In this document: piece after piece, positions 1 to 15,132 of the stretch
Layout: every line of letters begins with the position of its first letter
Position numbering within the stretch: the stretch's first letter is position 1
IMG/VR virus record: IMGVR_UViG_3300036859_000283
Coordinates: 1 to 39,011 of that record
DNA: 39,011 bases
From: a virus
Taxonomy: Duplodnaviria > Caudoviricetes
Strand: one strand, 5' to 3'
Program-made: the position numbers and the translations under genes
Notes under the pieces: model-generated
Databases searched by the model: none
Told to the model about the DNA's origin: nothing
The model's input: only the letters and a program-made list of their open reading frames with translations

Positions 1-87
1 ATCGCGCAGTTAGAGGCGGCTGGGGCGCGTCGGAAGGCGGCGCGGCTGGCCATGGACTTGGGCGTAACGGTGAAGAGGAGCGCCTAA
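1..87 (+). CDS. 3' end of an upstream gene (partial)
   Basis: Frame 1 is open from the window start (IAQLEAAGARRKAARL...) to TAA at 85-87, followed by a GC-rich hairpin at ~94-128. Confidence 0.5.
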   Translation: MAQLEAAGARRKAARLAMDLGVTVKRSA

Positions 88-146
88 GAGGTACCGGCCT
101 CGCTCTGGTGAGACAGGGCGGGGCCGGGTGGACAACGAGGTATGGC

Positions 147-383
147 ATGGGCATTTTAGCAGAAGCGGCGAAGTTAGCGCACGAGAAACAGGCGGCTGAG
201 CGGCACGCCTCACGGCGCAGGGTATCCACCTGGGGCGAGTTCGTGGCGGCCATCGAGGCGCACGGCGTCACGGATGGCACCGAGCTGCGGAGCATCGCCG
301 ACATGGCCTTTCCCTGCGTGGTGCGAGTGACACACGAGGACATCAACGCGCCCTTCGGGATTGACATCGGAGAGAGGCACTAG
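147..383 (+). CDS. Hypothetical phage protein
   Basis: ATG at 147 with GAGG upstream; stop abuts the ATG at 384. Confidence 0.7.
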   Translation: MGILAEAAKLAHEKQAAERHASRRRVSTWGEFVAAIEAHGVTDGTELRSIADMAFPCVVRVTHEDINAPFGIDIGERH

Positions 384-1451
384 ATGGCTGGATTCCAGAA
401 AGCGAAGGCGGAGCAGGCCGCGATCAAGATGGGCATCTACGGCCCGCCCGGGGCTGGCAAGACGTTCACGTCGCTGCTCTTGGCTGAGGGCCTAGCGGCG
501 CTGTCCTGGAAGCGGATTGCCTACGTCGATACCGAGCACGGCACCGACTTCTACTGCAAGGCGGTCAAGAGCCGAGCCGTGCATCCAGAGGCGTTCGACT
601 TCGATGCCATCTATACCCGGAGCATCACGGACGTGATCGCGGCCGTGAACGGCCTGAAGCCTGCCGACCACGGCGTGATCGTGCTCGACTCGATCACGCA
701 TCTGTGGGAAGCCGCGATGGCCGCCTACCGTGGCCCGCGCACCAAGACGGGCGGGATTCCGATCACGGCGTGGGGACGGATCAAGAAGCCCTACAAGGAT
801 CTGATGTCCTACCTGCTGTCGTCGCCGATGCACGTCATTATCTGCGGCCGGCAAGGGCTCATCTACGAAGAGAACGCGGAGACGGGCGAGTCGGCGGTGG
901 TCGGCGTGAAGATGAAGGCGGAGGGCGAGACGCCCTACGAGCCGCACATTCTGATCCGGATGGAGTCCGAGCGCGGCAAGCCCAACGAGATCGCCAGCAT
1001 CATCGCCTACGCCGAAAAGGACCGCACGGGCGTCCTCTCTGGGCGTTCGTTCGTCAACCCGACCTACGCCTCCATCTGTGCGCCGATCGTGGGCCTACTG
1101 GGCGGCACGCAAGCCCAGATCGCCACGGAGGACGAGGCGTCAACCGTAGATGCTGAAGTGTTGGAGCGCCAGGAGCGGGAGCGCGCATCGGAATCGGCGG
1201 ATGTGCTCCGGCGCATGTCGGCCCGGATCGACCTCGCGCCCACCGTTGAAGACCTGAAGGCGATCGGCAAGGAGATCACGCCCAAGCTCAAGGCGTCGAT
1301 GCTGCCGGCTGACGTCGTGCGGCTGCGAGCGAAATACGCCGAGCGTGACGCCTCGCTGAAGTCGGGTGTTCCTGCGAAGCCGGCGCCGACCGATGCCGAA
1401 CTGGATGCCGAGATCGCGGCCAAGGATGGCGAGACGCTCGGAGCCTTCTGA
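384..1451 (+). CDS. Sak4-like AAA/RecA-family ATPase (phage single-strand annealing recombinase)
   Basis: Walker A GPPGAGKT, IAYVDTE, Walker B VIVLDS, N-terminal F.KA.....K motif and KDRTG typical of phage Sak4/AAA_24 proteins. Confidence 0.85.
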   Translation: MAGFQKAKAEQAAIKMGIYGPPGAGKTFTSLLLAEGLAALSWKRIAYVDTEHGTDFYCKAVKSRAVHPEAFDFDAIYTRSITDVIAAVNGLKPADHGVIVLDSITHLWEAAMAAYRGPRTKTGGIPITAWGRIKKPYKDLMSYLLSSPMHVIICGRQGLIYEENAETGESAVVGVKMKAEGETPYEPHILIRMESERGKPNEIASIIAYAEKDRTGVLSGRSFVNPTYASICAPIVGLLGGTQAQIATEDEASTVDAEVLERQERERASESADVLRRMSARIDLAPTVEDLKAIGKEITPKLKASMLPADVVRLRAKYAERDASLKSGVPAKPAPTDAELDAEIAAKDGETLGAF

Positions 1452-1579
1452 TGAACCGCCCCTACCAGCTTCCTGTGTGGCCGACCGATCCGCTCCCGTT
1501 GGGCGCCAGTGCTTATGCGCTGCACTCGGCGAGTTGGTGGCGCGCGGTGACCAAGGCCACATTGGAGGCGCGGCGGTGA
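1451..1579 (+). CDS. Small hypothetical protein (42 aa, MNRPYQLPVWPTDP...)
   Basis: Not in the ORF track. Its ATG overlaps the upstream TGA (TGATG) and its TGA overlaps the next GTG, so it exactly fills the gap. Confidence 0.55.
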   Translation: MNRPYQLPVWPTDPLPLGASAYALHSASWWRAVTKATLEARR

Positions 1580-1965
1580 GAGACGACGTCAAGCTTGGAG
1601 ATGTCTGGTTCCGCTATGAGGACGGCCCGGCGCACTACTTCGGATGGCCGTTTGAGCCAGACCAATACGAGGTGGTGAAGGTGACGCCGTGTGGATGCCG
1701 TGTGCGGTTCAGTAAGGGCAGCTTCAGTATAGGCCGCGATCGGTTCGTGCTCATCGGTGCGCGGAAGCAGTACGCATGGCCAACGGCCGCTGAAGCTCTG
1801 GAGTCCTACCGGGCGAGGAAGCGTAAGCAGATCCGGATCTATTCCGCCAAGTTGGCAGAGGCGCGAAGGTGTCTCGCGGTGGCGGGCGAGACGTACGAGT
1901 TCAAAGGGTTCTCGTGGGTATCCGCGCCTGTCACGGCGGAGAAGGCAAGCGAGGTTGGCGCATGA
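1576..1965 (+). CDS. Hypothetical phage protein
   Basis: GTG at 1576 with GGAGG at 1564-1568; ATGA overlap with the next gene. Confidence 0.7.
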   Translation: MRDDVKLGDVWFRYEDGPAHYFGWPFEPDQYEVVKVTPCGCRVRFSKGSFSIGRDRFVLIGARKQYAWPTAAEALESYRARKRKQIRIYSAKLAEARRCLAVAGETYEFKGFSWVSAPVTAEKASEVGA

Positions 1966-2384
1966 AGAAGAAGCCCAAGGGCGAGCATGTCGCCAACGTC
2001 GATGGCACATGGGACGGCCGCAAGGTCGTCCTGGATAGCGATGATCACTACCGCCGCGAAGTGGCTAGGCTCGAGCTCGGCGTCGGCGAGCGCGTCACGG
2101 TCACGGTTGGTCGCCCTGAGGACATGCGGAAGCTCTGGCAGCTCCGCCACCTGATGGGTCACATCTACGAGCCAGTCGCGTCGTTCGACAACTGCGGGCA
2201 CACGAAGCTGGAACTGCACGCGATGGCGAAGGCGATGTTCATGCCGGACGGCAAGACATCGACGCGCGAGCTGACCTACGAAGAGATGGACGAGTTCTGC
2301 AAGCACGCGGAGCGATGGCTGCGGACGGACATGCCGGAGGCGTTTGTGGACTTCGATGCGCGACAGATGGGGCTGGCGTCATGA
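1962..2384 (+). CDS. NinB/Orf-like recombination accessory protein
   Basis: LHAMAKAMF...STRELTYEEMDEF...W pattern resembles the lambda NinB family; located near the recombinase. Confidence 0.55.
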   Translation: MKKKPKGEHVANVDGTWDGRKVVLDSDDHYRREVARLELGVGERVTVTVGRPEDMRKLWQLRHLMGHIYEPVASFDNCGHTKLELHAMAKAMFMPDGKTSTRELTYEEMDEFCKHAERWLRTDMPEAFVDFDARQMGLAS

Positions 2385-2575
2385 CCTGGCGTGTCCGACT
2401 CGCGCGGTTCATTCTCCGGTCTGATCCGGACTGGATGGTCTGCCTCACCTCAGACTACTGCGCGTTCATTCGCCTGTTGGTGGAAGAGGACAAGGTGCGG
2501 TCGATCATCGCGCAGCATGCCCAGTTGGGGCCGGTGCTGGACCTGCTGCCGCGGAAGCCGGAGACGAGGCACTAG
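2381..2575 (+). CDS. Hypothetical protein
   Basis: ATGA overlap at the start; stop abuts the next ATG. Confidence 0.6.
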   Translation: MTWRVRLARFILRSDPDWMVCLTSDYCAFIRLLVEEDKVRSIIAQHAQLGPVLDLLPRKPETRH

Positions 2576-2977
2576 ATGCCAAACGGCTCGATGTTTAAAG
2601 CGGATATGCCGTCTCGCGTTGAGACGAAGCGCATGCGGAAAGCGGAAGAGATGGCGCAATGGCGTGCCGTCTGTAAGCAAGTCGATACGCGCGATCGCGG
2701 GCGGTGTCGTGCATGCGGACGGCGGTGCGATCCCAACGCGCTTGGCCTTCTTGAGCGAGCGGAGCGCCATCACATCGTGTATCTGAGTGCGGGTGGCGAG
2801 GACATCGACCACAACGTCGTGACTCTCTGTGCAGGCTGCCACGCCGACCAACACGCCGGTCGGATGGACGTACGCGGGAATGCCAGGGCCGGGATCGAAG
2901 TCTGGCTGCGTGACGACGACGGCGCCTGGTTTCTCTCACGGCGGGAAGTGATGCCGCATGTAGTGGAGAAGGACTGA
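2576..2977 (+). CDS. HNH endonuclease
   Basis: RDRGRCRACG...HHIVYLSAGG...NVVTLCAGCH. Confidence 0.9.
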   Translation: MPNGSMFKADMPSRVETKRMRKAEEMAQWRAVCKQVDTRDRGRCRACGRRCDPNALGLLERAERHHIVYLSAGGEDIDHNVVTLCAGCHADQHAGRMDVRGNARAGIEVWLRDDDGAWFLSRREVMPHVVEKD

Positions 2978-3219
2978 TGACGCAAGCCTCGATCAATTTC
3001 GATCAGCCCGCCGAGACCATGACGGCCGCGGTGGCGCAGTTCTTCCGGCTGAATGCCGGCGTCTGGATCTCAGCGCTGGATGTGATGCGGGTAGGCGGCG
3101 CGCTGGCGTGGCGGACCGAAATCAGCCGCTGTCGCAAGGCGCCGTACCTCATGACGATCGAGAACCGCACGCGGCGTGTCGGTCGGAAGCTGTATAGCGA
3201 ATACAGGTTGGTGCCATGA
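2977..3219 (+). CDS. Small winged-HTH-like phage protein
   Basis: Coupled ORF with an ISALD...AWRTEISRCRK...IE...EYRL pattern. Confidence 0.55.
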   Translation: MTQASINFDQPAETMTAAVAQFFRLNAGVWISALDVMRVGGALAWRTEISRCRKAPYLMTIENRTRRVGRKLYSEYRLVP

Positions 3220-3422
3220 GCGGGCGCAACGGCTGGAAAAAGATCCCCATGCCCGGCCCGCCTGCCGCGCTGCCCAATGTGCTGCGCGCGCCTGCGGGCT
3301 CCTGGTGGATTGACGCGCAACTGAAACCGCGTGAGCAGTTCTACGCGGAGGCGGCCCGCTACGAGCACCACATGCAGGTGCGGGGCGTGAGCGCTGACCA
3401 GCTCGTCTGGCGGGACAAGTGA
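3216..3422 (+). CDS. Hypothetical protein
   Basis: ATGA/GTGA overlaps at both ends. Confidence 0.6.
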   Translation: MSGRNGWKKIPMPGPPAALPNVLRAPAGSWWIDAQLKPREQFYAEAARYEHHMQVRGVSADQLVWRDK

Positions 3423-4291
3423 CGAGGCGGAATAGCGACGGCATCGTGTTGCCAGAGGCGGTGCCAGATGAGCGCAGCTACGACGAGCGGCAGATCGCCC
3501 ATGCGCCAAAGCCATTCAGCATCTACTACCAGGACGATGCGGTGACGCTATACCACGGCGATTGCCTCGACGTGCTGCCAACGCTGCCGAAGGAATCCGC
3601 CGACATCGTGTGGACAGACCCGCCATATGGCCACAACAACAATGATGGGGATCTGATCCACCGGTGGGAAGCTGCCCTCGGCCAGCTACCCTCCGGTGAG
3701 ACTCCACCGGTGGGTCGTCCGATTGCCAACGACGGCGCCGACGACATGCGCCGAGTGGTGGACGGCGCCCTCACGGAGTGCGCCCGCATTCTCAAGCGCG
3801 ACTGCTGCTGCTGCTGCTGCGGCGGCGGCGGCCCGAAGCCGACCTTCGCGTGGTTGGCCGAGCGCATGGATCGCGGCGGGCTGTCGTTCTTCCATTCCGT
3901 CATCTGGGACAAGGGCGGACTTGGGATGGGCTGGCGGTATCGCCGGAATCACGAAATGGTCATGGTGGCCCACCGCAAGGGCGGGAAGTTGAAGTGGGAA
4001 TGGCAAGGGAAAGGCCCTGAGACGGCGAACGTCGTCCGGATAGGGAAGGTCATCCCCACGGCCGATGACCACCCTACGCCCAAGCCTGAGGCCCTGGTGC
4101 GGCATTTCCTCATGCTTCACGGCAAGCCTGGCGATCTGGTGGTCGATCCGTTTGCCGGCCATGGCGTCACTCTCCGAGTGGCCAAGGATCTCGGTCTGCG
4201 AGCTATCGGGATCGAGATTGACGAAGAGCACTGCAAGGCGACGGTCGAGCGGATGCGTCAGGGCTCGCTCTTTGGGGCTGGTGCGGCATGA
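3419..4291 (+). CDS. DNA amino-methyltransferase (N6-A/N4-C, beta class), orphan
   Basis: LYHGDC, catalytic TDPPY, HPTPKP and SAM-binding DPFAGHG in beta order; no partner restriction enzyme recognised. Confidence 0.92.
   Translation: MTRRNSDGIVLPEAVPDERSYDERQIAHAPKPFSIYYQDDAVTLYHGDCLDVLPTLPKESADIVWTDPPYGHNNNDGDLIHRWEAALGQLPSGETPPVGRPIANDGADDMRRVVDGALTECARILKRDCCCCCCGGGGPKPTFAWLAERMDRGGLSFFHSVIWDKGGLGMGWRYRRNHEMVMVAHRKGGKLKWEWQGKGPETANVVRIGKVIPTADDHPTPKPEALVRHFLMLHGKPGDLVVDPFAGHGVTLRVAKDLGLRAIGIEIDEEHCKATVERMRQGSLFGAGAA
3803..3832 (+). repeat. In-frame microsatellite (TGC)6(GGC)4 encoding C6G4
   Basis: Read directly from the sequence inside the methyltransferase. Confidence 0.95.
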
Positions 4292-4632
4292 GACTCCGCA
4301 GCTCGAAGTACAGCGCGAAGCGCACCGAAGTAGACGGCGTTGTGTTCCATAGCCAGAAGGAAGCGCGGCGGTACCAGGAACTGAAGCTGCTGCTGGCTGC
4401 TGGGGCGATTGAATGCCTTGCGCTGCAACCTGAGTTCGATCTCGACGTGATAGGTGGGCAAGTGAAAGACGTGAGGTACCGCATTGGCGGGTACAAGGCG
4501 GACTTTCAGTACATCGATAGGCGCACTGGCAAGCGAATCGTCGAGGACGTGAAGGGCTTCAAGACGCCGCTCTACAAGTGGAAGAAGAAACACGTCGAGG
4601 CCCAGTATGGAATCACGATCCTCGAAACCTAA
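4288..4632 (+). CDS. DUF1064-family phage endonuclease-like protein
   Basis: KYSAKRTEVDGVVFHSQKEARRY...LQPEF...YKADF.Y...VEDVKG. Confidence 0.85.
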   Translation: MRLRSSKYSAKRTEVDGVVFHSQKEARRYQELKLLLAAGAIECLALQPEFDLDVIGGQVKDVRYRIGGYKADFQYIDRRTGKRIVEDVKGFKTPLYKWKKKHVEAQYGITILET

Positions 4633-5088
4633 GTGGGCGGAGGTGCAGACGTGGGCGGCGTAAGCCGGGAACCGCAGACGACTGCCGTTGAGCGACTTAA
4701 GTACAACTGCGATCGTTTCGCGTTAAGCCATGGCGCGCAGATTCGTTGGCGGCGCGTCCTACTTGCCGATCCGTGTGCGTATTGTGGCGAGCGCGCCGAT
4801 GCCGTTGATCATATCGCTCCGCGGATTCGCGGAGGTCGGAACGACTGGAGAAACTATGCGCCCAGTTGCGGGCCTTGCAATTCGATGAAGGGGAAAGGGT
4901 CGCTCGCGTGGATGATCTGGCGGAGTCACGAACTCAGGAACGGACGCGCTCTCCTGAGGCCTGTCAGCCACCGTGTCGTAAACGGTGAGCGCATCGTGAC
5001 CGGCTGGATGTGGGTGTATCAGGGTCACCACAGAATGACTCGCGAAGGTGGCACGAAAGACACGGATTTATTGAGAGAAAGAGCTTGA
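4633..5088 (+). CDS. HNH endonuclease (start uncertain, possibly 4651)
   Basis: CAYCG...DHIAPRIRGG...NYAPSCGPCNSMK. Confidence 0.85.
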   Translation: MGGGADVGGVSREPQTTAVERLKYNCDRFALSHGAQIRWRRVLLADPCAYCGERADAVDHIAPRIRGGRNDWRNYAPSCGPCNSMKGKGSLAWMIWRSHELRNGRALLRPVSHRVVNGERIVTGWMWVYQGHHRMTREGGTKDTDLLRERA

Positions 5089-5631
5089 AATGAGGGTTGA
5101 GGTTGGTGGAGAATTGGGCATCGGGAACCGCGCGTCAACGCGGCCCCGACACCACTTCGCCACACTGGACGGAACCCAGGTGCAGCGCGATCCGAGATCG
5201 TCGCACATTCCTTTCAGGTTGACCAAGTGAACGCTTTTGGTGTTGGGCGTCGACCAATACCACACGCGAGCTACGTGCGGTTCCGCAGGGTATCGCGGCC
5301 ACGATGAGCCGAGCCTGATGTCCAGGCAGAAGCGGCGGCGCGGTTGACGGCAACGCGCGGGTCCGGCGACAGATCAGTGCGGGCGGGATTGTGTGTGTCA
5401 GAGCAAAAGGCCGGGCGCTGCTGAGGAGCAACCCGGGACCGCAGAGGACGCTGACGCATCCGGTTCTCACGGCAAGACTGCGGGAGTGCGCGCACCACGG
5501 CGCATGACGAGAACCGCCGCACTTCGGGCTACGACGGAGACGCTGACGTTGTAGGAGCGATAGGCACAGAGGCTGCGCAGCATTCTACGGAACTGCGGGA
5601 GTAAACCGTGGTCCGCAAGAAAGAAGGAACG
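5089..5631. ncRNA. Candidate structured non-coding region (large ncRNA or origin)
   Basis: No + strand ORF of 60 aa or more. Run of stems at 5121-5148, 5239-5261, 5313-5327, 5338-5358, 5411-5436, 5461-5468/5509-5516 and 5529-5554. Confidence 0.5.
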
Positions 5632-5886
5632 ATGGCGACGGACGAACAGAGGCGGAATCTCTTGCACGACATGGTGATGGGCGTCCTTGAGCGTGCGGAG
5701 ACGTTGGAGATCGGTACCGTCGCGCAGCATCTGGAGGACATCTTCGAGCGCATGTATGACGGGTGCGCGCAGTGCGATGGATTGTTCTCCGAGACAGGCG
5801 GCCGTCCCGTGTGCCAGCGGTGCTATGTGAATAACGGTGGTGGGCAGCAACAAAAACGGACGGGGAGCGGCAATGGGGCCAGCTAA
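5632..5886 (+). CDS. Hypothetical protein with CxxC...CxxC zinc-finger-like motif
   Basis: AAGGA RBS; CAQCD...CQRC. Confidence 0.7.
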   Translation: MATDEQRRNLLHDMVMGVLERAETLEIGTVAQHLEDIFERMYDGCAQCDGLFSETGGRPVCQRCYVNNGGGQQQKRTGSGNGAS

Positions 5887-6017
5887 CTAGCCGAGAAGGA
5901 ACGGCAGGCTGGGGAGGCGCAGCACGGCGTAGACAAGTCGAGCAAGCTGAGCGCCACGCCGGACACAGAGGGGCCGCCGGGCGGACGAGAGGCAAGGCCG
6001 CCAGTTGATTGGATCTG

Positions 6018-6242
6018 ATGATGAGCCATGTGCGTAAGTTTAAAGACGGTGCGTGTGTGACCTGTGGCGCCACCAAGGTGGTCGTCAATGGCGCGTGGCT
6101 ACGTCAGCGCCGTTTAGGCGCTGGGTTGAAGCTCAAGGATATGGCGAGCCGTCTCGGTCATGGCGTTGCCTACCTCAGCGACATAGAGCTCGATAGGCGC
6201 AATTGCTCACCACGAGTTCGCGCCGCCTATGAGGCGCTGTAA
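6018..6242 (+). CDS. Zn-ribbon plus XRE-family HTH regulator
   Basis: CVTCG, then LRQRRLGAGLKLKDMASRLG...YLSDIE. Confidence 0.8.
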   Translation: MMSHVRKFKDGACVTCGATKVVVNGAWLRQRRLGAGLKLKDMASRLGHGVAYLSDIELDRRNCSPRVRAAYEAL

Positions 6243-6523
6243 TGGATGATGCGAAGCACGAGCTACTAACCTTAATCGACTGGCTACACACGCACGCGGT
6301 GCGCCATATCGCCGGCAGTACGCCGAAGTCAGCCGTGCGGCGTCTGGCTTGCGACGTTCACGAAGCAGCGGGTCGTCTTCATCAGCTCGCACTGGACGCG
6401 ATGGGAACAGGAGCGACGTCGAATGGACTGCTGGACATTCAGCGCAAACTCGGCGTCGGGACTGCCACGGCGATGGAAATCCAAGAAGTTCTGAATCGAA
6501 GGAGTGTGCGTGATGGGCGCTGA
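6242..6523 (+). CDS. Hypothetical protein with FtsK-gamma-like C-terminal helix motif
   Basis: TAATG coupling; IQRKLGVGTATAMEI. Confidence 0.55.
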   Translation: MDDAKHELLTLIDWLHTHAVRHIAGSTPKSAVRRLACDVHEAAGRLHQLALDAMGTGATSNGLLDIQRKLGVGTATAMEIQEVLNRRSVRDGR

Positions 6524-6875
6524 TGGATCGCAGAGTCGAGGCGGAGGTCGAATCTATTCGAACGAGCTGGTGTCAGAGCCAGCGGCGAAGCAGGTGGAAA
6601 GGTTTCCGCGTGGGCGAGACGTGCGCGACCACCACTGCGGCAACCCGGAGTGTGAAGCGTGCGATGCGCAGCAGCCAGAGACAGAGGCGGAACTGTTGCG
6701 GCGCGATCTGGATTTTGCGCGAGCCGTCATTCATCGTCTCGAAAAAGATTGCTACGCACTGCAGGAGGCATTGCGCGGCATCCTTGAGATCGGCAAGCGC
6801 GACATGTCGAACCCGAAATACGACGGCTATTTCGAGGTGGCGAAGAAGGTGATCGGTGAGATCAGAGGCTTGTAG
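6513..6875 (+). CDS. Hypothetical protein (start uncertain)
   Basis: HHCGNPECEAC plus a coiled coil; stop abuts the ATG at 6876. Confidence 0.6.
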   Translation: MGADGSQSRGGGRIYSNELVSEPAAKQVERFPRGRDVRDHHCGNPECEACDAQQPETEAELLRRDLDFARAVIHRLEKDCYALQEALRGILEIGKRDMSNPKYDGYFEVAKKVIGEIRGL

Positions 6876-7262
6876 ATGTCCAAGCGCGCTGGCTACATCA
6901 TGGTCGATGAAGACGACGCTGACTTCAAAGCGTTCTGGAACGCGGTGCCATTACGCACCGCGAAGAAGGACGCGAGGCGTGCGTGGGCCGCGCTGAACCC
7001 ATCACCGGAGCTCGTGCAAGCTATTCTTGATGCGCTGGCCTGGCAAACGCCGATGTGGGCACGGCAAGGCTACGGAGCGCCGTACCCAGCCACCTACTTG
7101 AACGGTGAGCGCTGGACCGACGAATGCCCATCACACCTGAAGCCACGAGAGGAATGGCACTGTCCCCACGTCCAGCACTGCAACGGTCAGCACCAGTGCC
7201 GTCTCCTCCTCTCGGTGGATCCGGAGGGGACGAGATACACCCAATGCAGAAAGGCTGGCTAG
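6876..7262 (+). CDS. Phage replisome-organiser/initiator C-terminal-like domain protein
   Basis: FKAFWNAVP...KKDARRAW...YPATYLNGERWTDE motif typical of the C-terminus of phage replication initiators. Confidence 0.7.
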   Translation: MSKRAGYIMVDEDDADFKAFWNAVPLRTAKKDARRAWAALNPSPELVQAILDALAWQTPMWARQGYGAPYPATYLNGERWTDECPSHLKPREEWHCPHVQHCNGQHQCRLLLSVDPEGTRYTQCRKAG

Positions 7263-7269
7263 TTCGAAC

Positions 7270-7458
7270 ATGACGCGGAAGCCGACGCAGCTTGCCAAAA
7301 TGTTGGTCCTCTGGCGTGCCGTCAATAATGTGACGTTACGGAGCTTAGGGAAGCAGACGGGTATCTCGCACGCCACGCTCATGCGAATCGAGCACGGCTA
7401 CGCGATGGACCTTGAGACGTGGAGGCGGTTGGAGAATTGGTTACTGGCGAGCTCTTGA
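7270..7458 (+). CDS. XRE-family HTH regulator
   Basis: TLRSLGKQTGISHATLMRIEHG. Confidence 0.8.
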   Translation: MTRKPTQLAKMLVLWRAVNNVTLRSLGKQTGISHATLMRIEHGYAMDLETWRRLENWLLASS

Positions 7459-7482
7459 CAGAATACATGTATTGTGTAGAAT
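7455..7482 (+). promoter_or_regulatory. Sigma70-type promoter with palindromic operator in the spacer
   Basis: TTGACA (7455-7460), N16, TAGAAT (7477-7482); perfect palindrome AATACATGTATT at 7462-7473; AT-rich island. Confidence 0.8.
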
Positions 7483-7489
7483 AGGCGCC

Positions 7490-7675
7490 ATGGAGGGGAT
7501 GGCAATGACGTTTGCGCAGCACATGGCGATGGCTCGTGAGTGGTGCCGGTACAACGGCCAGAAGGGAACCGAGAAGCAGGCGCTACGGGTGATGCGGCAG
7601 CTCACGGCTGCCGATCTGATTCGCATGCTGGGAGAGCGGAACGTACCGCTTCCGGCAGGCTGTGAGGTGCGGTGA
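7490..7675 (+). CDS. Hypothetical protein (start 7490, 7499 or 7505)
   Basis: Directly downstream of the promoter; GGAGG at 7492-7496. Confidence 0.65.
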   Translation: MEGMAMTFAQHMAMAREWCRYNGQKGTEKQALRVMRQLTAADLIRMLGERNVPLPAGCEVR

Positions 7676-7959
7676 TGGTGCGGTTCGACTGCGGCGCATG
7701 GGAACACGAAACGATGCGTGAGATAGCAGAGCGGGCGGCCGTGCTGGCTCGGCGCGCTGGCGTCCGGAAGGTGTCTGTGCAGGCAATCTGGATGGATCTC
7801 ATCGCCACGCACGTCAACGGGTGCCCGCTGAGGCTCGAAGAAATGCGGCACGCCGACGATTTCAATCTGGCGCATGACGTGTTTGGTATCGGTCGGCACT
7901 TGAACCGCGACACGGGCGCGCTGGAAGGGTGCTTCGTGCCGAGATTCGCGGCGCAGTAG
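7672..7959 (+). CDS. Conserved phage protein (DUF6874-like)
   Basis: MDLIATHVNGCPLRL...ADDFNLAHDVFGI.RHLNRDTG.L..CFVPRFA motif. Confidence 0.7.
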   Translation: MMVRFDCGAWEHETMREIAERAAVLARRAGVRKVSVQAIWMDLIATHVNGCPLRLEEMRHADDFNLAHDVFGIGRHLNRDTGALEGCFVPRFAAQ

Positions 7960-8285
7960 TGAGCGATTCGAGCAAAGAGGCCGTCGCTCTTCGGGCGGCG
8001 GCTGTTGCGTGGACAGATGGCGCTCGTGGGCCGGTGCTGGACGCGCACGACACCGCCGGCCTTCGTCGTGACAGCAAGTTGAAGCGAGCCGCTGTACGCT
8101 TCGCTATGGCAAAAAAGCGAGGCTATTCCGACGAGTTCCCAACCACGCGAGAGAAGCGCGTCTACTTCATGCTCGACAAGATTCCACCAGCTCTCTGGAT
8201 CCGCGTGAAGGCGAAGGCGAAGCGCGAAGGTGTGTCGCTGCGCTCGCTGATTCTGAAGTGGTGCCAAGAATGGGTCGAGCGCTGA
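7959..8285 (+). CDS. Protein with C-terminal ribbon-helix-helix (Arc-like) DNA-binding domain
   Basis: VYFMLDKIPPALWIRVKAKAKREGVSLRSLILKW; an alternative start at 8106 is possible. Confidence 0.7.
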   Translation: MSDSSKEAVALRAAAVAWTDGARGPVLDAHDTAGLRRDSKLKRAAVRFAMAKKRGYSDEFPTTREKRVYFMLDKIPPALWIRVKAKAKREGVSLRSLILKWCQEWVER

Positions 8286-8335
8286 GTTCTGTTCTGTGGC
8301 CGTGTCCGTGAAGGAGTCAAGGCGATGGAAGATTT

Positions 8336-8380
8336 CACGCGCGTGGACATCCGGACGTGATTCCCGCGTTGCCCTACCGC
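8336..8380 (+). repeat. Bipartite dispersed element, copy A
   Basis: CACGCGCGTGGAC-N25-CTACCGC followed by AACGAGGTG. Confidence 0.85.
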
Positions 8381-8402
8381 AATGGAAAAACGAGGTGATT
8401 TA

Positions 8403-8600
8403 ATGGACACACGAGACGGAACGATCTACGACAGCCGCGAACTGGCAAAGGCAGCCGGAGTGCCTGACGAGGATTTGGTGACTGGCAGCCGTGAGGCGTT
8501 GGAGAAGCTTCGGAAGCGGCTCGTGTTCTCTGGCGGCTCTTTCAAGACCGTCGAGGAAGACGAGGCCAGAAAGCTACTGAAGTCAGAGGTAGGCAGGTGA
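8403..8600 (+). CDS. Hypothetical cargo protein
   Basis: GAGGTG RBS supplied by the tail of element A. Confidence 0.7.
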   Translation: MDTRDGTIYDSRELAKAAGVPDEDLVTGSREALEKLRKRLVFSGGSFKTVEEDEARKLLKSEVGR

Positions 8601-8872
8601 CTCACCTGGAAATCGGAACCATTCTCAGCCATCGCACCAAAGAGGGGATGATCGAATTGGTGCTCAACGGCGAGAAGACGCAGATGGACATCCCGAAGGC
8701 GAAGGAAGTGCTCGGGATGCTCAGCGGCGCGATCGAGGCGGCCGTGTCTGACACGCTGATCTATCGCTTCCTGACGTCCAAGGTGGGCCTGAGCGAAGAC
8801 AAGGCCGCGGCTGCGCTTATGGACTTTCGAGAACTGCGCCAGGGCTCTCGCGAGACGGTGTATCCGAACTGA
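8597..8872 (+). CDS. Hypothetical cargo protein
   Basis: GTGA overlap and GAGG RBS. Confidence 0.7.
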   Translation: MTHLEIGTILSHRTKEGMIELVLNGEKTQMDIPKAKEVLGMLSGAIEAAVSDTLIYRFLTSKVGLSEDKAAAALMDFRELRQGSRETVYPN

Positions 8873-8880
8873 GGTGAGGC

Positions 8881-9135
8881 ATGGAAACAGACTGTTACAT
8901 GGAGTCCAGGCCAACGTTCTGGCAGCGCACGAAGTGGGGGATCTGGAAGGCGCCGCATCGCCCGCTGATCACGAACGACCCGCGCACGTACGTTACGGTG
9001 GAAATGCACACAGCGATCGGGTGGCGAGATCGCATCGGCGTGCTGCTGTTAGGGCGCATACGAAGCACGGTGCTGGTCTACACCGACGTGGAAGTAAAGC
9101 AGGCCGAGAGTCGTGCCGTCACGTGGGTTGAATAG
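8881..9135 (+). CDS. Hypothetical cargo protein
   Basis: GAGGTGAGG RBS. Confidence 0.65.
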   Translation: METDCYMESRPTFWQRTKWGIWKAPHRPLITNDPRTYVTVEMHTAIGWRDRIGVLLLGRIRSTVLVYTDVEVKQAESRAVTWVE

Positions 9136-9156
9136 CGAATCAACTCATTGCTCTAC

Positions 9157-9200
9157 GCGGTAGCTTGTTCTAAACGCTTCACGGCTGTCGGTGGTCGCGA
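9157..9200 (-). repeat. Bipartite dispersed element, copy B (degenerate)
   Basis: Minus strand reads TCGCGACC...GCTACCGC-N7-AATGAGTTG; followed by a pyrimidine tract on the + strand. Confidence 0.55.
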
Positions 9201-9231
9201 CTGATTCTGATCTTTTTCTGAGGCTGTTCTG

Positions 9232-9531
9232 ATGTCTGATGCTGTGCCCTCTCCGGCGGGCGAGGCCCGGAGGACGCTGAGAGACTACTGCGAGCATTTG
9301 GCCGAGTGCGGGATCTGGAAGTGTGCCGTCACGTTCGGCGCCGAGCGTTGCAACGGGCGACAGTTCGATGAGTTCCACTACGCGGGCGCGGCTGACAGCC
9401 ACTCGTTCGTCGCCGGTGTTTGCACCTGTGGCCTGGATGCTCTCTTAGCCGCCGATCCCCTCCCAGCCGAGGACGGGACAGAGAAAGAACGTCATGCGCG
9501 CGTGGACGGCAAAGCTGATGCCCGCCCATAG
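9232..9531 (+). CDS. Cys/His-rich hypothetical protein; C-terminus derived from element C
   Basis: YCEHLAEC...CTCGLDALLA, a pattern common in phage accessory proteins. Confidence 0.7.
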   Translation: MSDAVPSPAGEARRTLRDYCEHLAECGIWKCAVTFGAERCNGRQFDEFHYAGAADSHSFVAGVCTCGLDALLAADPLPAEDGTEKERHARVDGKADARP

Positions 9532-9540
9532 CCCTACCGC
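9495..9540 (+). repeat. Bipartite dispersed element, copy C
   Basis: GCGCGCGTGGAC-N26-CTACCGC. Confidence 0.85.
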
Positions 9541-9580
9541 GGCCAGCGTCTGGGCGCTATCAGCAGATGAAGAGCGCGAC

Positions 9581-9925
9581 GTGATGGCGTTCGATCCGTG
9601 GGGTGAGCGAGATGCGACCTACCGCACCCTACGAAGTTCGTTCGTAGTAGTCCGGTCGGCGCATCAGTGCGCCATTTGTTTTGGTCCCATCGCGACAGGC
9701 GAGCGGGTGTGGTCGAAGTCTGAAGTTGACGATGGCAAGGCCAAGACATTCCGGTTCTGCGCTGAGTGCTGCTGGTGCATTGCGCATCGTTATGACGAAA
9801 ACGAGGACGACCCGCACTTCGGGTTTATGCGCATGGAAGAACGCTGGGAAATAGGCTCCGGGCGGGCGCGCGAAGAACAACAGTCGTCCGCCGCGGTAGG
9901 GCAACGTGGGAGTCACACTGATTGA
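9581..9925 (+). CDS. Zinc-finger-like cargo protein (start uncertain)
   Basis: HQCAIC...I..GE...FCAECC; its stop TGA lies within element D. Confidence 0.7.
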   Translation: MMAFDPWGERDATYRTLRSSFVVVRSAHQCAICFGPIATGERVWSKSEVDDGKAKTFRFCAECCWCIAHRYDENEDDPHFGFMRMEERWEIGSGRAREEQQSSAAVGQRGSHTD

Positions 9926-9941
9926 CCACGCGCGCCAAGTC
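9893..9941 (-). repeat. Bipartite dispersed element, copy D
   Basis: Minus strand GCGCGTGGTC-N24-CTACCGC; 22/24 match to copy A over the distal 24 nt. Confidence 0.88.
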
Positions 9942-9983
9942 TTTATATTTCTTGTATTTACCGAGGACGGGAAGGACCAGTAG

Positions 9984-10490
9984 ATGAGCGAGCGATTGCT
10001 GTCGAAGCTGTTCCGCCACGAAGAAATCAACGGCGCGAACCGGTGCCCGACCTACCTGCATCGTTGGGCGCTGTTCCAGCCGCGGCGGCCCAAGTGGCTC
10101 TGGCGAGGGTTTGGGATCTACCTGCACAAGTTCGTCGGCGACGACTGGAGCCGCGATCTGCACGATCATCCGAAGCGATTCATCAGCATCGGGCTCAAGG
10201 GTTCCTATCGGGAATGGACGTTCAACGAGCGGGCGGCGACGTGTCCGTGTCCGGAAGAGCACGAACACATCATGGCGACGGACTATCACGCGCCGTGGGT
10301 GCGGACATTCCCCGCAAGTCACATTCACCGGATCGTGTTGGTGGACGACAGGCAGCCGTGCTGGACGCTCGTCATCGTGCTCTGGCACGTCCGCGAGTGG
10401 GGCTTTTGGCATCGCGGCAGCTTCATGCCCTGGCGTGGCTACGTGGCCCAAGGTAATGCTATCGCCGACGAACGAAAGGCGTGCCCATGA
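9984..10490 (+). CDS. Cupin-like conserved phage protein
   Basis: YLHKF...D..RDLHDHP..FIS..L.G.Y.E...H.HRI.L...WTLV...R.WGFW. Confidence 0.7.
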   Translation: MSERLLSKLFRHEEINGANRCPTYLHRWALFQPRRPKWLWRGFGIYLHKFVGDDWSRDLHDHPKRFISIGLKGSYREWTFNERAATCPCPEEHEHIMATDYHAPWVRTFPASHIHRIVLVDDRQPCWTLVIVLWHVREWGFWHRGSFMPWRGYVAQGNAIADERKACP

Positions 10491-12319
10491 CGATGTTTAA
10501 CCCCTCCCCCGGTGCCGCGCCGTCCCCAGCCAGGAAGAAGCTGATCGAGGACATTCTGTGGCTGGAAAGCTTCTACACCTACGCGAACACAGAGCAGCCG
10601 AGCCTGGCCAACAGCGAGGAATGGCAAACGGTCAAGGAGGCGGCGCTCGCGGCACCTTCGAAGATTGATACGCCAGCCGGTGAAGCGACCAATCATGAGT
10701 TGGCGGCGTTGCTACGTAAGTGGTGCAAGCCGTATCCGTCCGGCGAGTGCTGTATGTGCCAGTCGCCACCTGAAGAATATTGCGACGAAGAATGCAAGGT
10801 GCCGGCGCTGATGTTGATGGCGAACAGGCTCGAACAGGCAGCGCTCGCGGCGTCCCCTGTCTCCCATGTTCAAGCCGAGACACGCGAAGAGTTACTCGAT
10901 CAACTCGGTCCAGTCGCGCCAGTCGCGGAAGAGTTGATGCGCCGCATGGCGGTCTCCCCGGCTGATCCCGCGCCCGTGGCGTGGTGTGCTTTTGCGCATG
11001 CGAATGCTGGCCAGACCTGCCGCGAGCTCAGGCCGGGCGATTCGGCGAGTTGGTGTCACGGCTGCGATCCCGCCATCCAGAGAGAGCAGTATTTGGCAAT
11101 CAATAAGTGCCCGAACCACGGCTTCTACTCGATCACTGTTGAAGACGACGACACAGGGACGCGCGTCACGCCCTCTAAGTGCTGCGGACGCTGGGACACC
11201 GTTAAGCGTTGGAAAGTGTCACAGTGCGATCTCGCATCCCTCCTCGCCGCTCAGTCACAGCCCGCGCCCGTGGCGTCCCCATCGGTGAGAGAGCAGCTAA
11301 CCTTCGAGGCATTCAGCGCGGCCAATCTGGAGCGGTGTGAGAGTCCTGAAGGGTTCGCCCACGACCTTCACGCGTGGTCAGCGTCCGACTGGATGACGGC
11401 CCTGGTCGGTGAGGTTGGGGAGGCAGCGAACATCATCAAGAAGCTGAATCGCTATCGTGACGGCGCACGCGGGAACAATGAGTCCGAGGATGCGCTGCGC
11501 GTGAAGCTCCGCAAGGAATTGGGCGACGTGTTCGTCTATCTCGACCTGATTTGCATATCACAAGGCTTCACAGTGCGCGATGCTGCGGTCGAAGTATTCA
11601 ACGACAAGTCGCGGCAAATTGGCTACCCAGTTCTGCTCGCCGCTCAGCCACTCCCCGGAGGCGTCAAGCCCCCAGTCCAGGACGAACAGGAAAAGCACGA
11701 TACGCGCGTGGACAGTTTGAGCTTCGCCAACTCACCGCTCGCAACGACCGCAGGGTCGAACGAGGTGCCTCCGTCGCCTGCTCATACACGTCTCATGGTG
11801 CCGCCCATCAATGGCGAGTTCGTCAACGCGAAGGCCGCGCACTGGACTATGGTGAGCGTCTACAGCCGCGAGATGGACCTGATCGGGCGACGCGATTTCG
11901 CTGTGCATGTCGAAACAGAGGAACCGCGTAACGAAGCCCAAGAGCGCGTCGTTCGCCGCGGCAATCGCTACTACCCGACAACGGTGACGATAGATGTTGG
12001 TGATGCCGACGTGTGGATGCATCCGGCCGAAGCACGCGAACTAGCCGCGTATCTTATTGAGGCGGCAGATGTGGCCGACGCCTGCGATTTACCAGACGGC
12101 GACAAATGCGGGCACTGGGCACCCTGCGACTGCGAGCAGGCTGTCGCGAAGGACAGCGCGGGCTCGTTACTGGACTCGCATCCCAACGATGGCCGCGTGG
12201 AAAACAAGAACGACTCTCTTGATCAGGCCCGAGCCGACGCCTACTCCCAGGGCGGCACCGACCTCGCGCGAGGCGTGAAACCAGCGGCGGCCACGGAGCG
12301 GAAGGAGCCGACGCCATGA
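10487..12319 (+). CDS. Mosaic multi-module accessory protein containing a MazG-like nucleotide pyrophosphohydrolase domain
   Basis: MazG-type LVGEVGEAANIIKK...LRKELGDVFVYL at ~11290-11635; other Cys-rich modules joined by AALAA/PAPVA linkers. Confidence 0.75.
   Translation: MTMFNPSPGAAPSPARKKLIEDILWLESFYTYANTEQPSLANSEEWQTVKEAALAAPSKIDTPAGEATNHELAALLRKWCKPYPSGECCMCQSPPEEYCDEECKVPALMLMANRLEQAALAASPVSHVQAETREELLDQLGPVAPVAEELMRRMAVSPADPAPVAWCAFAHANAGQTCRELRPGDSASWCHGCDPAIQREQYLAINKCPNHGFYSITVEDDDTGTRVTPSKCCGRWDTVKRWKVSQCDLASLLAAQSQPAPVASPSVREQLTFEAFSAANLERCESPEGFAHDLHAWSASDWMTALVGEVGEAANIIKKLNRYRDGARGNNESEDALRVKLRKELGDVFVYLDLICISQGFTVRDAAVEVFNDKSRQIGYPVLLAAQPLPGGVKPPVQDEQEKHDTRVDSLSFANSPLATTAGSNEVPPSPAHTRLMVPPINGEFVNAKAAHWTMVSVYSREMDLIGRRDFAVHVETEEPRNEAQERVVRRGNRYYPTTVTIDVGDADVWMHPAEARELAAYLIEAADVADACDLPDGDKCGHWAPCDCEQAVAKDSAGSLLDSHPNDGRVENKNDSLDQARADAYSQGGTDLARGVKPAAATERKEPTP
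11701..11751 (+). repeat. Bipartite dispersed element, copy E (read through in frame)
   Basis: TACGCGCGTGGAC-N31-CGACCGC followed by AACGAGGTG, as in copy A. Confidence 0.75.
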
Positions 12320-12543
12320 GCACAGAGCAAGACGGAGAGTGCCCGCGTTGCTGGCTGCCCAACGGGCACGCTGGGTCGTGTGACCACCCAATCCAGAGGG
12401 ATTGGGCTCCACATGTCGTGAGGGTGATCGGTGGCTTACTGCTCCTCTATGTCGTGAGCAGGCCCGAGGCGGAATGGCGCGCGTTCGCCATGGGGGCGGC
12501 CGGCGTGTGGATACTACGGATACTGATGCCGAGGTGGTTCTGA
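12316..12543 (+). CDS. Small membrane protein
   Basis: AAGGAG RBS; CxxC...H...C, then two hydrophobic segments. Confidence 0.65.
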   Translation: MSTEQDGECPRCWLPNGHAGSCDHPIQRDWAPHVVRVIGGLLLLYVVSRPEAEWRAFAMGAAGVWILRILMPRWF

Positions 12544-12935
12544 TGGTGCCTGATGTGTCCCCCGCCTCCGTAGAGCGGCTGATCGAAGAACTGAAGCGGT
12601 ATCACCACGTCTCAGATGACTGCTGGTATTCCTGTCCGCTCAGCGACGAAGGCTGCTGTAACCACGATGAGACTGGCTGCACCTGTGGAGCCACTACCCA
12701 TAACGAGCAAGTTGATGCGGCTCTAGAAGCCGTGCGCGCCCTCCTCGCCGAGCGAGACGCATGGAAAGACCAAGCCGAGGACGATCAAGCGGACGCACGA
12801 CGTGACCGCGAGTTGCGGCAGCACGCCCAAGCCGAGCGAGACGCCGCCGTAGCGCTCTTGCGCAATGTGAACCCGAACAGCTACCCGGTAATCGCGGCGT
12901 GGCTGGCTGCCCGCGACGCGAAGGAGCAGGGATGA
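12543..12935 (+). CDS. Cys-rich hypothetical protein with coiled coil
   Basis: TGATG coupling, GAGG RBS; DCWYSCP...CC...CTCG. Confidence 0.7.
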   Translation: MVPDVSPASVERLIEELKRYHHVSDDCWYSCPLSDEGCCNHDETGCTCGATTHNEQVDAALEAVRALLAERDAWKDQAEDDQADARRDRELRQHAQAERDAAVALLRNVNPNSYPVIAAWLAARDAKEQG

Positions 12936-13207
12936 GCATGTTCGTCGCTGGCTTGTCCGGGTTTCTCGGCGGTGTGACGCTCATGACCTACGCCGCTGCG
13001 CGTGTTTACGAAGGCGCGGACCGTCCGTTCGTGGCGGTGGGCTTCACCTTCGCGTTCCTCATTGTTGGCGGCTTCCAGGCTTATTATATCCGCCAGGGCG
13101 AGCGCCGAGACGAACGCCGCGAGATCGAACGCGAGTATGAACGGTTGTTGGAGGCACGACGAGCCGACGACGCGGTAGCTCGCTCCGTTGGAGGCAGCAC
13201 GACATGA
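12932..13207 (+). CDS. Two-TM membrane protein
   Basis: AAGGAG RBS; two hydrophobic helices; stop TGA within element F. Confidence 0.7.
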   Translation: MSMFVAGLSGFLGGVTLMTYAAARVYEGADRPFVAVGFTFAFLIVGGFQAYYIRQGERRDERREIEREYERLLEARRADDAVARSVGGSTT

Positions 13208-13223
13208 CCACGCGCGCGAAGTC
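13172..13223 (-). repeat. Bipartite dispersed element, copy F
   Basis: Minus strand GCGCGTGGTC-N27-CTACCGC; TGACCACGCGCGC(G/C)AAGTC is 18/19 identical to copy D. Confidence 0.88.
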
Positions 13224-13271
13224 GTGCTCTGTCTGTTCTTTGACGTTCTCCACCCCAGGGAGGTCCACCCC

Positions 13272-13466
13272 ATGAGCCGTACGCCGCACGGCTCCGAGAA
13301 GGTGCAATGCCCCTCCTGTGGGGCCTGGCACACGTTGGTCATGGACTCTCGAGGGCCACTTCGCCTCCGCATGTGCGACTGTGGCAAACGCCTCCTAACC
13401 CGCGAAGTGCTCGAGGACGCGGATTATCCGAAGCACACGATCACCGCCGCCACGATCACGAAATAA
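13272..13466 (+). CDS. Zinc-ribbon protein (NrdR-N/Ogr-like), possible late regulator
   Basis: CPSCG...VMDSR...R.R.C.CGKR..TRE; GGAGG RBS; last gene before the packaging module. Confidence 0.65.
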   Translation: MSRTPHGSEKVQCPSCGAWHTLVMDSRGPLRLRMCDCGKRLLTREVLEDADYPKHTITAATITK

Positions 13467-13567
13467 TTACGAACCGCCCAAGCTCTTGGGCGCGACTCAG
13501 CTACTGCCACTTCAGAATGTGTACCTAGGCGTGTTCTCACAGGACGCGCCGGAGGTGTCGCGCCCAT

Positions 13568-13792
13568 TTGAAGCTTACGGTGCCTGCGCTGTCGTCCGTG
13601 CTTCCGATTGAGCTCCCACGCGATCAGCACTGTGACGTCATTCTCGACAGCGAGGGCCGATTCCTCAGGCTCGTCGAGACGATGCCGCCGCAAATCAACT
13701 TCGAACGCTTCCCAGCGCCTACCCGAGCGATCGAGGCGCAATGGCGCGCTGAGGAATGGGCTGAAGCGCAGGCTAAGTGGTGGAAATCGTGA
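13568..13792 (+). CDS. Hypothetical protein
   Basis: TTG start after GGAGG; GTGA overlap with the next gene. Confidence 0.5.
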   Translation: MKLTVPALSSVLPIELPRDQHCDVILDSEGRFLRLVETMPPQINFERFPAPTRAIEAQWRAEEWAEAQAKWWKS

Positions 13793-14277
13793 GCGACACC
13801 GCCCTCGCCGAGCGCCCCACAGACACACCCGAAGTCGAAACACGCAGTTCACGTGCGGACGGCAAAGGCCGCAGGCTCACCCACCGCGAAGTCAGCACCA
13901 TCCTCCAACTCGCCGAGATCGGCAAGAACATCCCAGAGATCGCCCAAGTCGTAGATTGCTCAGTCTCTACCGTCCACAGCACGCTTGAGAAATACGCCGA
14001 CAACCGCTCTCTCGCACGCCGGAAACTTGAAGGCGGAGCGACCAAACTCGTCGATACCGTGCTGCAGACGAAAGACGCCGCGACGGCTCTGCGAGCCCTT
14101 GGAAAGCTGGATGTCGTTCGTGATGAACAAGATAGAGGCGGCACGAACATCGCGATTGTGATTGGGCAACCCGGGCAGGCGCTACAGCCACCGAGTATTC
14201 AGATAGCCTCTGGAACAGAAATCAGACCACTTTCGCCTACGAACATCAGTGACTTAGCCTGTGGAAAACATGGCTAA
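13789..14277 (+). CDS. HTH protein, probable terminase small subunit
   Basis: GKNIPEIAQVVDCSVSTV helix-turn-helix; helical body and beta-like tail (TNIAIVIG); upstream of the large terminase. Confidence 0.6.
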   Translation: MSDTALAERPTDTPEVETRSSRADGKGRRLTHREVSTILQLAEIGKNIPEIAQVVDCSVSTVHSTLEKYADNRSLARRKLEGGATKLVDTVLQTKDAATALRALGKLDVVRDEQDRGGTNIAIVIGQPGQALQPPSIQIASGTEIRPLSPTNISDLACGKHG

Positions 14278-14546
14278 CGTCGAGATGTGGGTCGCATAGT
14301 AATGGATTACGTTAACCGCGAAAAGGCCAATGAAAATGGGGGAGCTGCACCGTGTGGAGACACGCCAGGCCCCCGTCAAGCCGGCGCGGCAACGGTGCGG
14401 GAGGCTCCAGCCCTACCCCTGCCTGTGCGCCCTAGTCGTGAAGACCAGTTTGCGGTGATGGTTGTTATGGAGCATGGCTTCGCGGATGGCACATTGGAGA
14501 AATCCTTAGGACAAATGACACCTATCCAGCGCACGGCTGAGCTGTG

Positions 14547-14813
14547 ATGTCTCGATTCTGGCCATTTGGTCGTGCGAAGGCGGTAGAGGCGCCCGTTGAG
14601 TCGGCGCGGGACACGGCGGAGGTTCCAGCCCTGGCGGTGTGGGACGGCGCGGTGACGTGGACCTCGGTCCCGCCGGCTGAGCCCGAGCCGCGTCGGTACT
14701 GCGAGGTGACGCGGGTGAAGGGCGTGGGTGAGTTTCATGCGGTGTGCGACGTGGGGTTGAAGAAAGCGCCGGAGGGTGGCGTGGTGATCCGGACGGGGCA
14801 CTGGGTTGTTTAG
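14547..14813 (+). CDS. Hypothetical protein
   Basis: ORF in the G-rich block, overlapping the next start. Confidence 0.5.
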   Translation: MSRFWPFGRAKAVEAPVESARDTAEVPALAVWDGAVTWTSVPPAEPEPRRYCEVTRVKGVGEFHAVCDVGLKKAPEGGVVIRTGHWVV

Positions 14814-15132
14814 TACGCCGTATGGGTTGCGGGTCGCGCAGGGGACGAGTGGGGCGGGTGCGGCGGTGACGGTGACGGTGAGTGGGGTCACGGGGCAGAC
14901 GCACTACCTGCATGGGGTGCAGTGGTCGTATTCGGCGGCGCCGACGGGCGGGCGCTTGACGTCGGTGGGGCTGGTGGGGGACGACCTGGACGTGGACGTG
15001 ACGGCGGCGGGACCGGACGCGGTGGAGTGCTTTGGGGTGCCTGGGGCGTCGGGGGGATCGGTGGCGGTGACCTTGGCGGCGCCTGGGGGCGCGGTGGTGG
15101 GGAAGGTGACCGTGGTGTATCGGACGATCTGA
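14806..15132 (+). CDS. Small Gly/Val/Thr-rich beta-sandwich protein, possibly virion-associated
   Basis: Alternating beta pattern; TGATG coupling to the terminase. Confidence 0.6.
   Translation: MFSTPYGLRVAQGTSGAGAAVTVTVSGVTGQTHYLHGVQWSYSAAPTGGRLTSVGLVGDDLDVDVTAAGPDAVECFGVPGASGGSVAVTLAAPGGAVVGKVTVVYRTI

Follow-up and report, generated by a model that had tools for sequence, protein, structure and literature searches.

Inverted bipartite motifs, accessory genes and flanking direct repeats in soil phages: a possible family of non-autonomous cassettes

How phages gain whole accessory genes with clean boundaries is a long-standing question, and such gains are usually ascribed to random illegitimate recombination plus selection. 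Among the closest described systems, the mobile insertion cassette MIC231 (IS4/IS231 family) is non-autonomous, its passenger genes lying between inverted ends. Gene-sized cargo is also carried by integron cassettes and pdif modules, and pdif arrays alternate the orientation of their sites. In the parts of the reports cited here, duplications are given as about 10 bp for the IS4 family and as a variable 8–514 bp for IS1549/IS1634 (PMC2266710), as 2–10 bp for MITEs (PMC11602168), and as 15–17 bp for the ISTde1 subgroup of the IS1202 family, which has conserved 5'-TGT ends (10.1101/2022.12.17.520857). The cited part of PMC2839356 describes the PeSLs of T4-like phages as semi-conserved repeats of about 100 bp, with an AT-rich upstream part and a ribosome-binding site (RBS), that lie beside accessory genes and mediate their shuffling; a PeSL is a sigma70 promoter plus a stem-loop, and recombination leaves one chimeric copy. 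Finally, the cited part of PMC3116915 describes REPs as short palindromes with hundreds of chromosomal copies, and REPINs as inverted doublets that are mobilized by a transposase in trans (RAYT) and leave asymmetric excision footprints.

The 482-bp unit and its phage

The stretch analyzed here (the window: all 39,011 nucleotides of IMG/VR record IMGVR_UViG_3300036859_000283) is a phage contig with matches to terminase, capsid, Sak4-like, HNH and resolvase proteins. A sequence-only reading had proposed that a unit flanked by a 12-bp direct repeat is a recent insertion with a target-site duplication. The relevant features, in window coordinates, are:

384..1451, plus strand: Sak4-like annealase, which bears on the recombination alternative discussed below
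2576..2977, plus strand: small HNH nuclease, a weak candidate helper whose action on the motif is putative
8338..8380, plus strand: motif copy B, unpaired, followed by an RBS and gene 8403
9232..9531, plus strand: upstream Cys-rich gene; the arm and core of C encode its present C-terminal tail
9467..9478, plus strand: left 12-bp direct repeat, inside the last codons of the 9232 gene
9479..9496, plus strand: A-rich outer arm of element C, 18 nt
9494..9925, plus strand: cargo gene (phrog_19515, weak DUF7576 match), which starts at the edge of C and stops at a TGA within D
9497..9540, plus strand: element C (core 1, variable middle, core 2), 34.5 bits
9893..9934, minus strand: element D, inverted relative to C, 47.2 bits
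9935..9960, minus strand: A-rich outer arm of element D, 26 nt
9961..9972, plus strand: right 12-bp direct repeat
9984..10490, plus strand: downstream gene, phrog_4786, cysteine-dioxygenase-like
11703..11751, plus strand: motif copy E, in frame within a 612-aa mosaic ORF
13172..13216, minus strand: motif copy F, convergent with E across 1.5 kb

The two copies of the 12-mer are identical, cannot be extended in either direction, and enclose 482 bp (9479–9960). As the earlier reading had noted, the gaps between repeat and core are unequal, 18 nt at C and 26 nt at D, and in silico deletion of 9479–9972 closes the 9232 frame with the predicted tail, directly followed by the ATG at 9984. The resulting TAGATG junction does occur at 381, 2573 and 6873 as claimed, but it is also found at 1147, 9981, 11991 and 29861, and because this makes seven occurrences in the window the junction type is weak evidence. 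Is one 12-bp repeat meaningful? The window has 18 exact repeats of at least 12 bp within 1 kb, and a single 12-mer is by itself unremarkable. When two 70-nt windows were placed at the same spacing, 2 of 1095 placements matched, both being the 9467/9961 repeat itself. With seven TAGATG junctions and 18 repeats in the window, the single case therefore required a test on a family of such sites.

The window site has so far been seen only in its filled form. No empty allele was present in the Logan contigs of runs X1 and X2 (2/2, contigs only), which are perhaps the source samples; Logan contigs drop rare variants. An exact scan of IMG/VR for 20 nt of the right junction matched only the window's own phage. 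The 10 other loci homologous to gene 9984 showed neither an empty allele nor the motif upstream of the gene (0/10). Homologues of the 9232 gene end in unrelated tails, and they are too distant to decide on an empty allele. The 482-bp unit had no match among 50,697 GenBank phages. Taken with the family data below, the proposed insertion of the C–D unit is partly supported: flanking duplications are found family-wide and empty alleles at two other sites, though not at this one, and the adjective 'recent' derives solely from the 12/12 identity of the repeats.

The cargo gene has 56 other homologues. Four of these bear motif-derived peptides, which come from different motif copies (in P0006, at both ends); the others start with their own Met and have no motif peptides, so that the motif here replaces the start of the cargo gene and supplies its stop.

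The motif family, its cargo and its flanking repeats

Elements C and D belong to a bipartite motif made up of CGCGCGTGGWC, about 24 variable nt and [GGAT]CTACCGC, with an A-rich outer arm. The window has five copies (8338+, 9497+ [C], 9934– [D], 11703+ and 13216–), and pattern scans found the motif in IMG/VR and in JGI metagenomes; distinct copies in these viral and metagenome contigs number about 300. In the viral set an HMM gave 146 matches, 139 of them distinct, spread over 68 of the 145 merged contigs (a few singletons with low scores are probably chance matches); in the metagenome set it gave 173 distinct matches, 157 of them new, in 126 loci. GTDB yielded 40 pattern matches, of which one looks genuine (L169, 42 bits) and lies in a phage-like contig. 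That contig (match at 3976–4063) is from a Gemmatimonadaceae bin and is possibly misbinned, and for this reason it is a weak lead to a host. The spread of the motif is patchy, with none in 10 relatives chosen by capsid protein and representatives in three morphogenesis lineages. A literature search covering few subscription journals and no supplements (the viral MITE lists of PMC11602168 being among these) did not find the motif described. The family of cassette ends is real, widespread in soil phages, and apparently undescribed.

Profiles of 109 copies show that the outer arm is A-rich in both orientations, that the inner arm is semi-conserved and often provides an RBS, and that a CGCGTSGWC unit repeats about 40 bp apart within ends. 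The same profiles gave no covariation between the cores, and hairpin pairing between them was accordingly rejected; folding is weak (mean z –0.55 and –0.23; 150/254 elements). Adenine-specific (DGR-like) mutation of the elements was also rejected, as substitutions are distributed over all types. It is of note that core 1 more often has its T variant in copies that lie against transcription (A 54%) than in those that lie along it (A 86%), and that this variant makes a TGA able to terminate the cargo gene.

The weak folding bears on the possibility that a host HUH transposase (RAYT/IS200-like) moves the pair as a REPIN-like doublet via single-stranded hairpins, with asymmetric ends. This would fit the GTAG on the reverse strand of core 2 and the asymmetry of REPIN excision reported in the cited part of PMC3116915. 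Set against it are the folding values, the lack of covariation between cores, the absence of the motif as a chromosomal repeat and the lack of a Y1 transposase among the proteins scanned, and we regard it as very unlikely.

Among neighbouring copies at most 1.6 kb apart, convergent pairs number 38 of 55 in the viral set and 36 of 45 among those new in the metagenomes (74/100 overall), the scan patterns having selected for the motif and not for orientation, and neighbours within one array being non-independent. Convergent pairs usually enclose one or two complete accessory genes (for methylases, Acb2/Tad1 anti-defence proteins or unknown products), and 45 of the 49 ORFs within or overlapping viral pairs are co-directional with the operon by crude gene calls. 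Scanning of 68 of the 84 candidate cargo frames (overlapping and opposite ones were left out) identified four DNA methylases, two Acb2/Tad1 proteins above the cut-off and one below it, and one each of SLOG, T5orf172, RyR, PAPS reductase and DUF5662. The rest of the 68 frames fell in no family; most cargo genes have no Pfam match, and none is a transposase. Homologues of gene 8403, which follows the unpaired copy B, are cassette cargo in L288 and L342.

Flanking repeats were scored in 70-nt windows outside the cores, with cross-paired and outward-shifted windows as controls. Scores of at least 12 were obtained for 8 of 37 viral pairs (at least 10 for 11 pairs), versus 4 of 1324 cross-paired and 1 of 322 shifted controls. 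The metagenome replicate gave 9 of 31 versus 2 of 928, the other 22 pairs scoring 8 or less. Pooled, 17 of 68 pairs score at least 12 (16 of 67 without the window) versus 7 of 2574 controls; the positive pairs amount to about 15 distinct sites once shared sites are merged. The association of direct repeats with convergent pairs is not due to chance. It is also far from universal, since 48 of the 68 pairs have no flanking repeat scoring 10; in the window itself, the best flanking repeat of the E–F pair is only 6 bp. The general density of repeats near elements is not raised (0.71 versus 0.66 per kb). Most flanking repeats are confined to their own site within 1.77 Mb, and some recur as linkers inside one genome.

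Anatomy was measured in 19 of the 20 positive pairs, one flank being too short. The repeats are 10–22 bp long with 76% GC, and lie 6–52 nt (median 23.5) from the cores, so the unequal distances, unlike those of precise IS ends, that had been pointed out for the window hold across the family. There is no fixed terminal base at the tips (first base C in 15, A in 11, G in 6 and T in 6 of 38 ends), but the change from GC-rich repeat (0.76 GC) to A-rich tip (A 0.40 over the first 8 nt) is abrupt. The idea that the arms are decayed copies of the target was rejected (score –4.5 versus –4.2 for the control).

These data largely refute the view that the motif copies are dispersed regulatory sites (promoter, terminator or operator) and that the 12-mer at the window site arose by chance. 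Such a view could appeal to the 18 exact repeats of at least 12 bp within 1 kb in the window, and to element D plus its arm (9922–9949), which match a sigma70-like promoter directed towards gene 9984. That single match compares with 0.4 ± 0.7 expected, and Rfam gave no real match in window positions 1–15000 (one at E 0.54). Enrichment of flanking repeats in both the viral and the metagenome set, the presence of both motif orientations around one gene and the existence of empty alleles leave this view highly improbable.

Alleles, exchange and the search for an enzyme

The L212 site has an empty form in L237 and L254, with one copy of the repeat and 11–12 of 12 bases matching on each side; an empty form of the L221 site is matched less fully by L212 and L235 (8/12 on one side). 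Such empty alleles can also arise by deletion between the repeats. Four slots contain different cargo between related ends, identity being 0.83–0.94 in three and 0.65–0.69 in the fourth. Conversely, L288 and L342 have the same two-gene cassette (left middle 0.91 identical) at unrelated flanks. Alleles of the same slot break variously at the arm, core 1, the middle or core 2, with no single point, and mosaic elements occur (L418 versus L326). In L221 and L230, a repeat-bounded slot is filled by motif-free DNA; this and the recurrence of some repeats as linkers argue against a plain target-duplication reading.

In L212 (9650–11100), L223, L237, L221, L226, L231, L235 and L254, near-identical blocks of 17–45 bp, each repeated several times, form a scaffold with wholly variable in-frame inserts between them, that is, a hypervariable linker array. 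The window's mosaic ORF (10481–12319) has short repeated linkers and a MazG-like domain with a 12-bp repeat on either side (11243, 11636), and reads E in frame. A low-depth contig of run X2 has 256 other letters in place of window positions 10654–11260. This replacement is bounded exactly by repeated linkers (10643 and 11261) and amounts to module swapping inside the 612-aa mosaic ORF.

Might there then be no dedicated mobilizer at all? The cores would in that case be short-homology anchors, like PeSLs or linkers, for annealases such as Sak4, ERF and RecT, and the flanking repeats would be linkers doubled by out-of-register crossovers between related phages. The linker arrays with motif-free inserts, the X2 replacement between repeated linkers, the mosaic elements and the annealase genes of some carriers all fit this, and Sak4 anneals oligonucleotides that are 20% diverged, according to the cited part of PMC5928155, a tolerance that also suits it. 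Left unexplained are the inverted pairing, the site-unique perfect repeats of up to 22 bp that abut A-rich tips, and the presence of one cassette at unrelated flanks. Moreover, PeSL excision yields a chimeric element from directly repeated copies (PMC2839356, cited part), whereas the empty alleles found here are element-free. We regard recombination alone as less likely than insertion, but as the main alternative to it.

No enzyme that tracks the motif was found. The carriers that are whole or nearly so, 23 from three morphogenesis lineages, share no recombination gene except a small HNH, and no integrase, resolvase, transposase or reverse transcriptase is common to motif carriers. Of 50 records, 10 encode a tyrosine integrase (6 of the 23 that are complete) and 3 an IS1595 transposase, which has its own ends and also occurs in motif-free relatives; a resolvase is present in 1 of 24. 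Reverse transcriptase, Cas1 and Y1 transposase were absent from the proteins scanned. The Pfam screen covered 33 of 94 shared clusters, 7 window ORFs and 244 proteins, mainly unclustered ones of 170–800 aa; unclustered proteins below 170 aa were left out. A PHROG 'transposase' match at window position 13777–14277 was discarded because it covers only an HTH domain; the protein, encoded just before the terminase large subunit, is probably the small terminase subunit. L447 (15520–17260) and L483 (829–1788) contain elements of the IS1595 family, with passenger genes and inverted ends of their own.

The small HNH (2576–2977 in the window) has a basic N-terminal helix and is the sole early gene common to most of these otherwise unrelated phages. 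It is present in 21 of 24 carriers and in 5–6 of 10 motif-free relatives (Fisher p 0.03–0.16, with a model built from carriers), and is therefore neither necessary nor specific; on this distribution it was rejected as the enzyme. Fold comparison gave generic HNH domains only (best E 5e-3), and the Atlas pointed to viral HNH clusters. When the HNH model was used to search 401 + 301 genomes for a host, the matches were mostly long multicopy HNH proteins, and no host can accordingly be assigned.

On balance, and on comparative evidence, we think it probable that the 482-bp unit is a non-autonomous one-gene cassette whose ends are imprecise and which an enzyme acting in trans inserted as a unit, duplicating a 12-bp target. 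From the observed anatomy and alleles we infer a series of steps. A protein would first bind each end, which reads as about two tandem CGCGTSGWC-containing units 40 bp apart. A linear fragment would then be released or protected, with tips some 15–35 nt outside the cores, either through cleavage at a distance or through exonuclease trimming that is stopped by the bound protein. The fragment would be joined into a staggered break of 10–22 nt, gap filling giving the repeat. After insertion, recombination at the conserved cores would let the ends swap patches and cargo with further motif copies, and selection would retain cassettes with a whole, co-oriented cargo gene. Against this cassette reading stand the failure to find an empty allele at the window site, the 48 of 68 pairs without a repeat scoring 10, the lack of a motif-tracking enzyme, the motif-free slots and the scattered breakpoints. 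Insertion and recombination may both be operating, insertion making linkers that recombination then uses.

More tentatively, genes could be captured with no transposase, a protein on paired inverted sites defining a ragged linear fragment that is ligated into nicks 10–22 nt apart. If that were so, accessory and anti-defence genes would pass between unrelated lineages through repeat-bounded slots and linker arrays that transposase-free capture had first created.

Comparison with described systems

Three or more unrelated phage lineages have this sequence-defined cassette end in common, and the genes it brackets include methylases and the anti-defence proteins Acb2/Tad1. It leaves countable footprints, so that clean-boundary gene gain becomes testable with the 482-bp unit as substrate; the motif could also serve as a probe for mining anti-defence candidates.

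Like MITEs and mobile insertion cassettes, the phage cassettes have inverted ends around non-transposase DNA. Unlike them, they have no conserved terminal bases abutting the duplication, from which the cores are separated by gaps of 6–52 nt, and the duplications (10–22 bp in 19 pairs) exceed the 2–10 bp of MITEs. Their two ends, unlike those of MIC231 and MITEs, differ in their middles, and no cognate transposase or chromosomal copies were found; neither the 68 cargo frames nor the 40 GTDB pattern matches included an autonomous partner with the same ends. Long duplications are shared with ISTde1, IS1549 and IS1634, but the terminal bases are mixed where ISTde1 has 5'-TGT, and such a transposase was not seen. 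IS1595 differs too, the transposases of L447 and L483 having inverted repeats of their own instead of motif ends.

As in PeSLs, recombination between motif copies shuffles genes, as mosaic elements and cargo swaps indicate. PeSLs, however, have a promoter and a terminator stem-loop; among B, C and D only D has a promoter-like match, folding is weak, and the phage motif, which has no general promoter or hairpin, occurs in inverted pairs with duplications outside. The motif also differs from REPINs in being non-palindromic and phage-borne and in enclosing genes; it forms no REP-like hairpin, and neither numerous chromosomal copies nor a RAYT was found in GTDB, where the host may be missing. Gene-sized cargo and alternating site orientation recall integrons and pdif modules, from which the phage cassettes differ in having no tyrosine recombinase shared among the phages, no single crossover point, and duplications that lie outside the sites. 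Overall, the system works like a MITE that carries cargo, or like a mobile insertion cassette, and it shuffles like a PeSL, but it lacks features by which MITEs, ISTde1, REPINs, PeSLs and integrons are defined.
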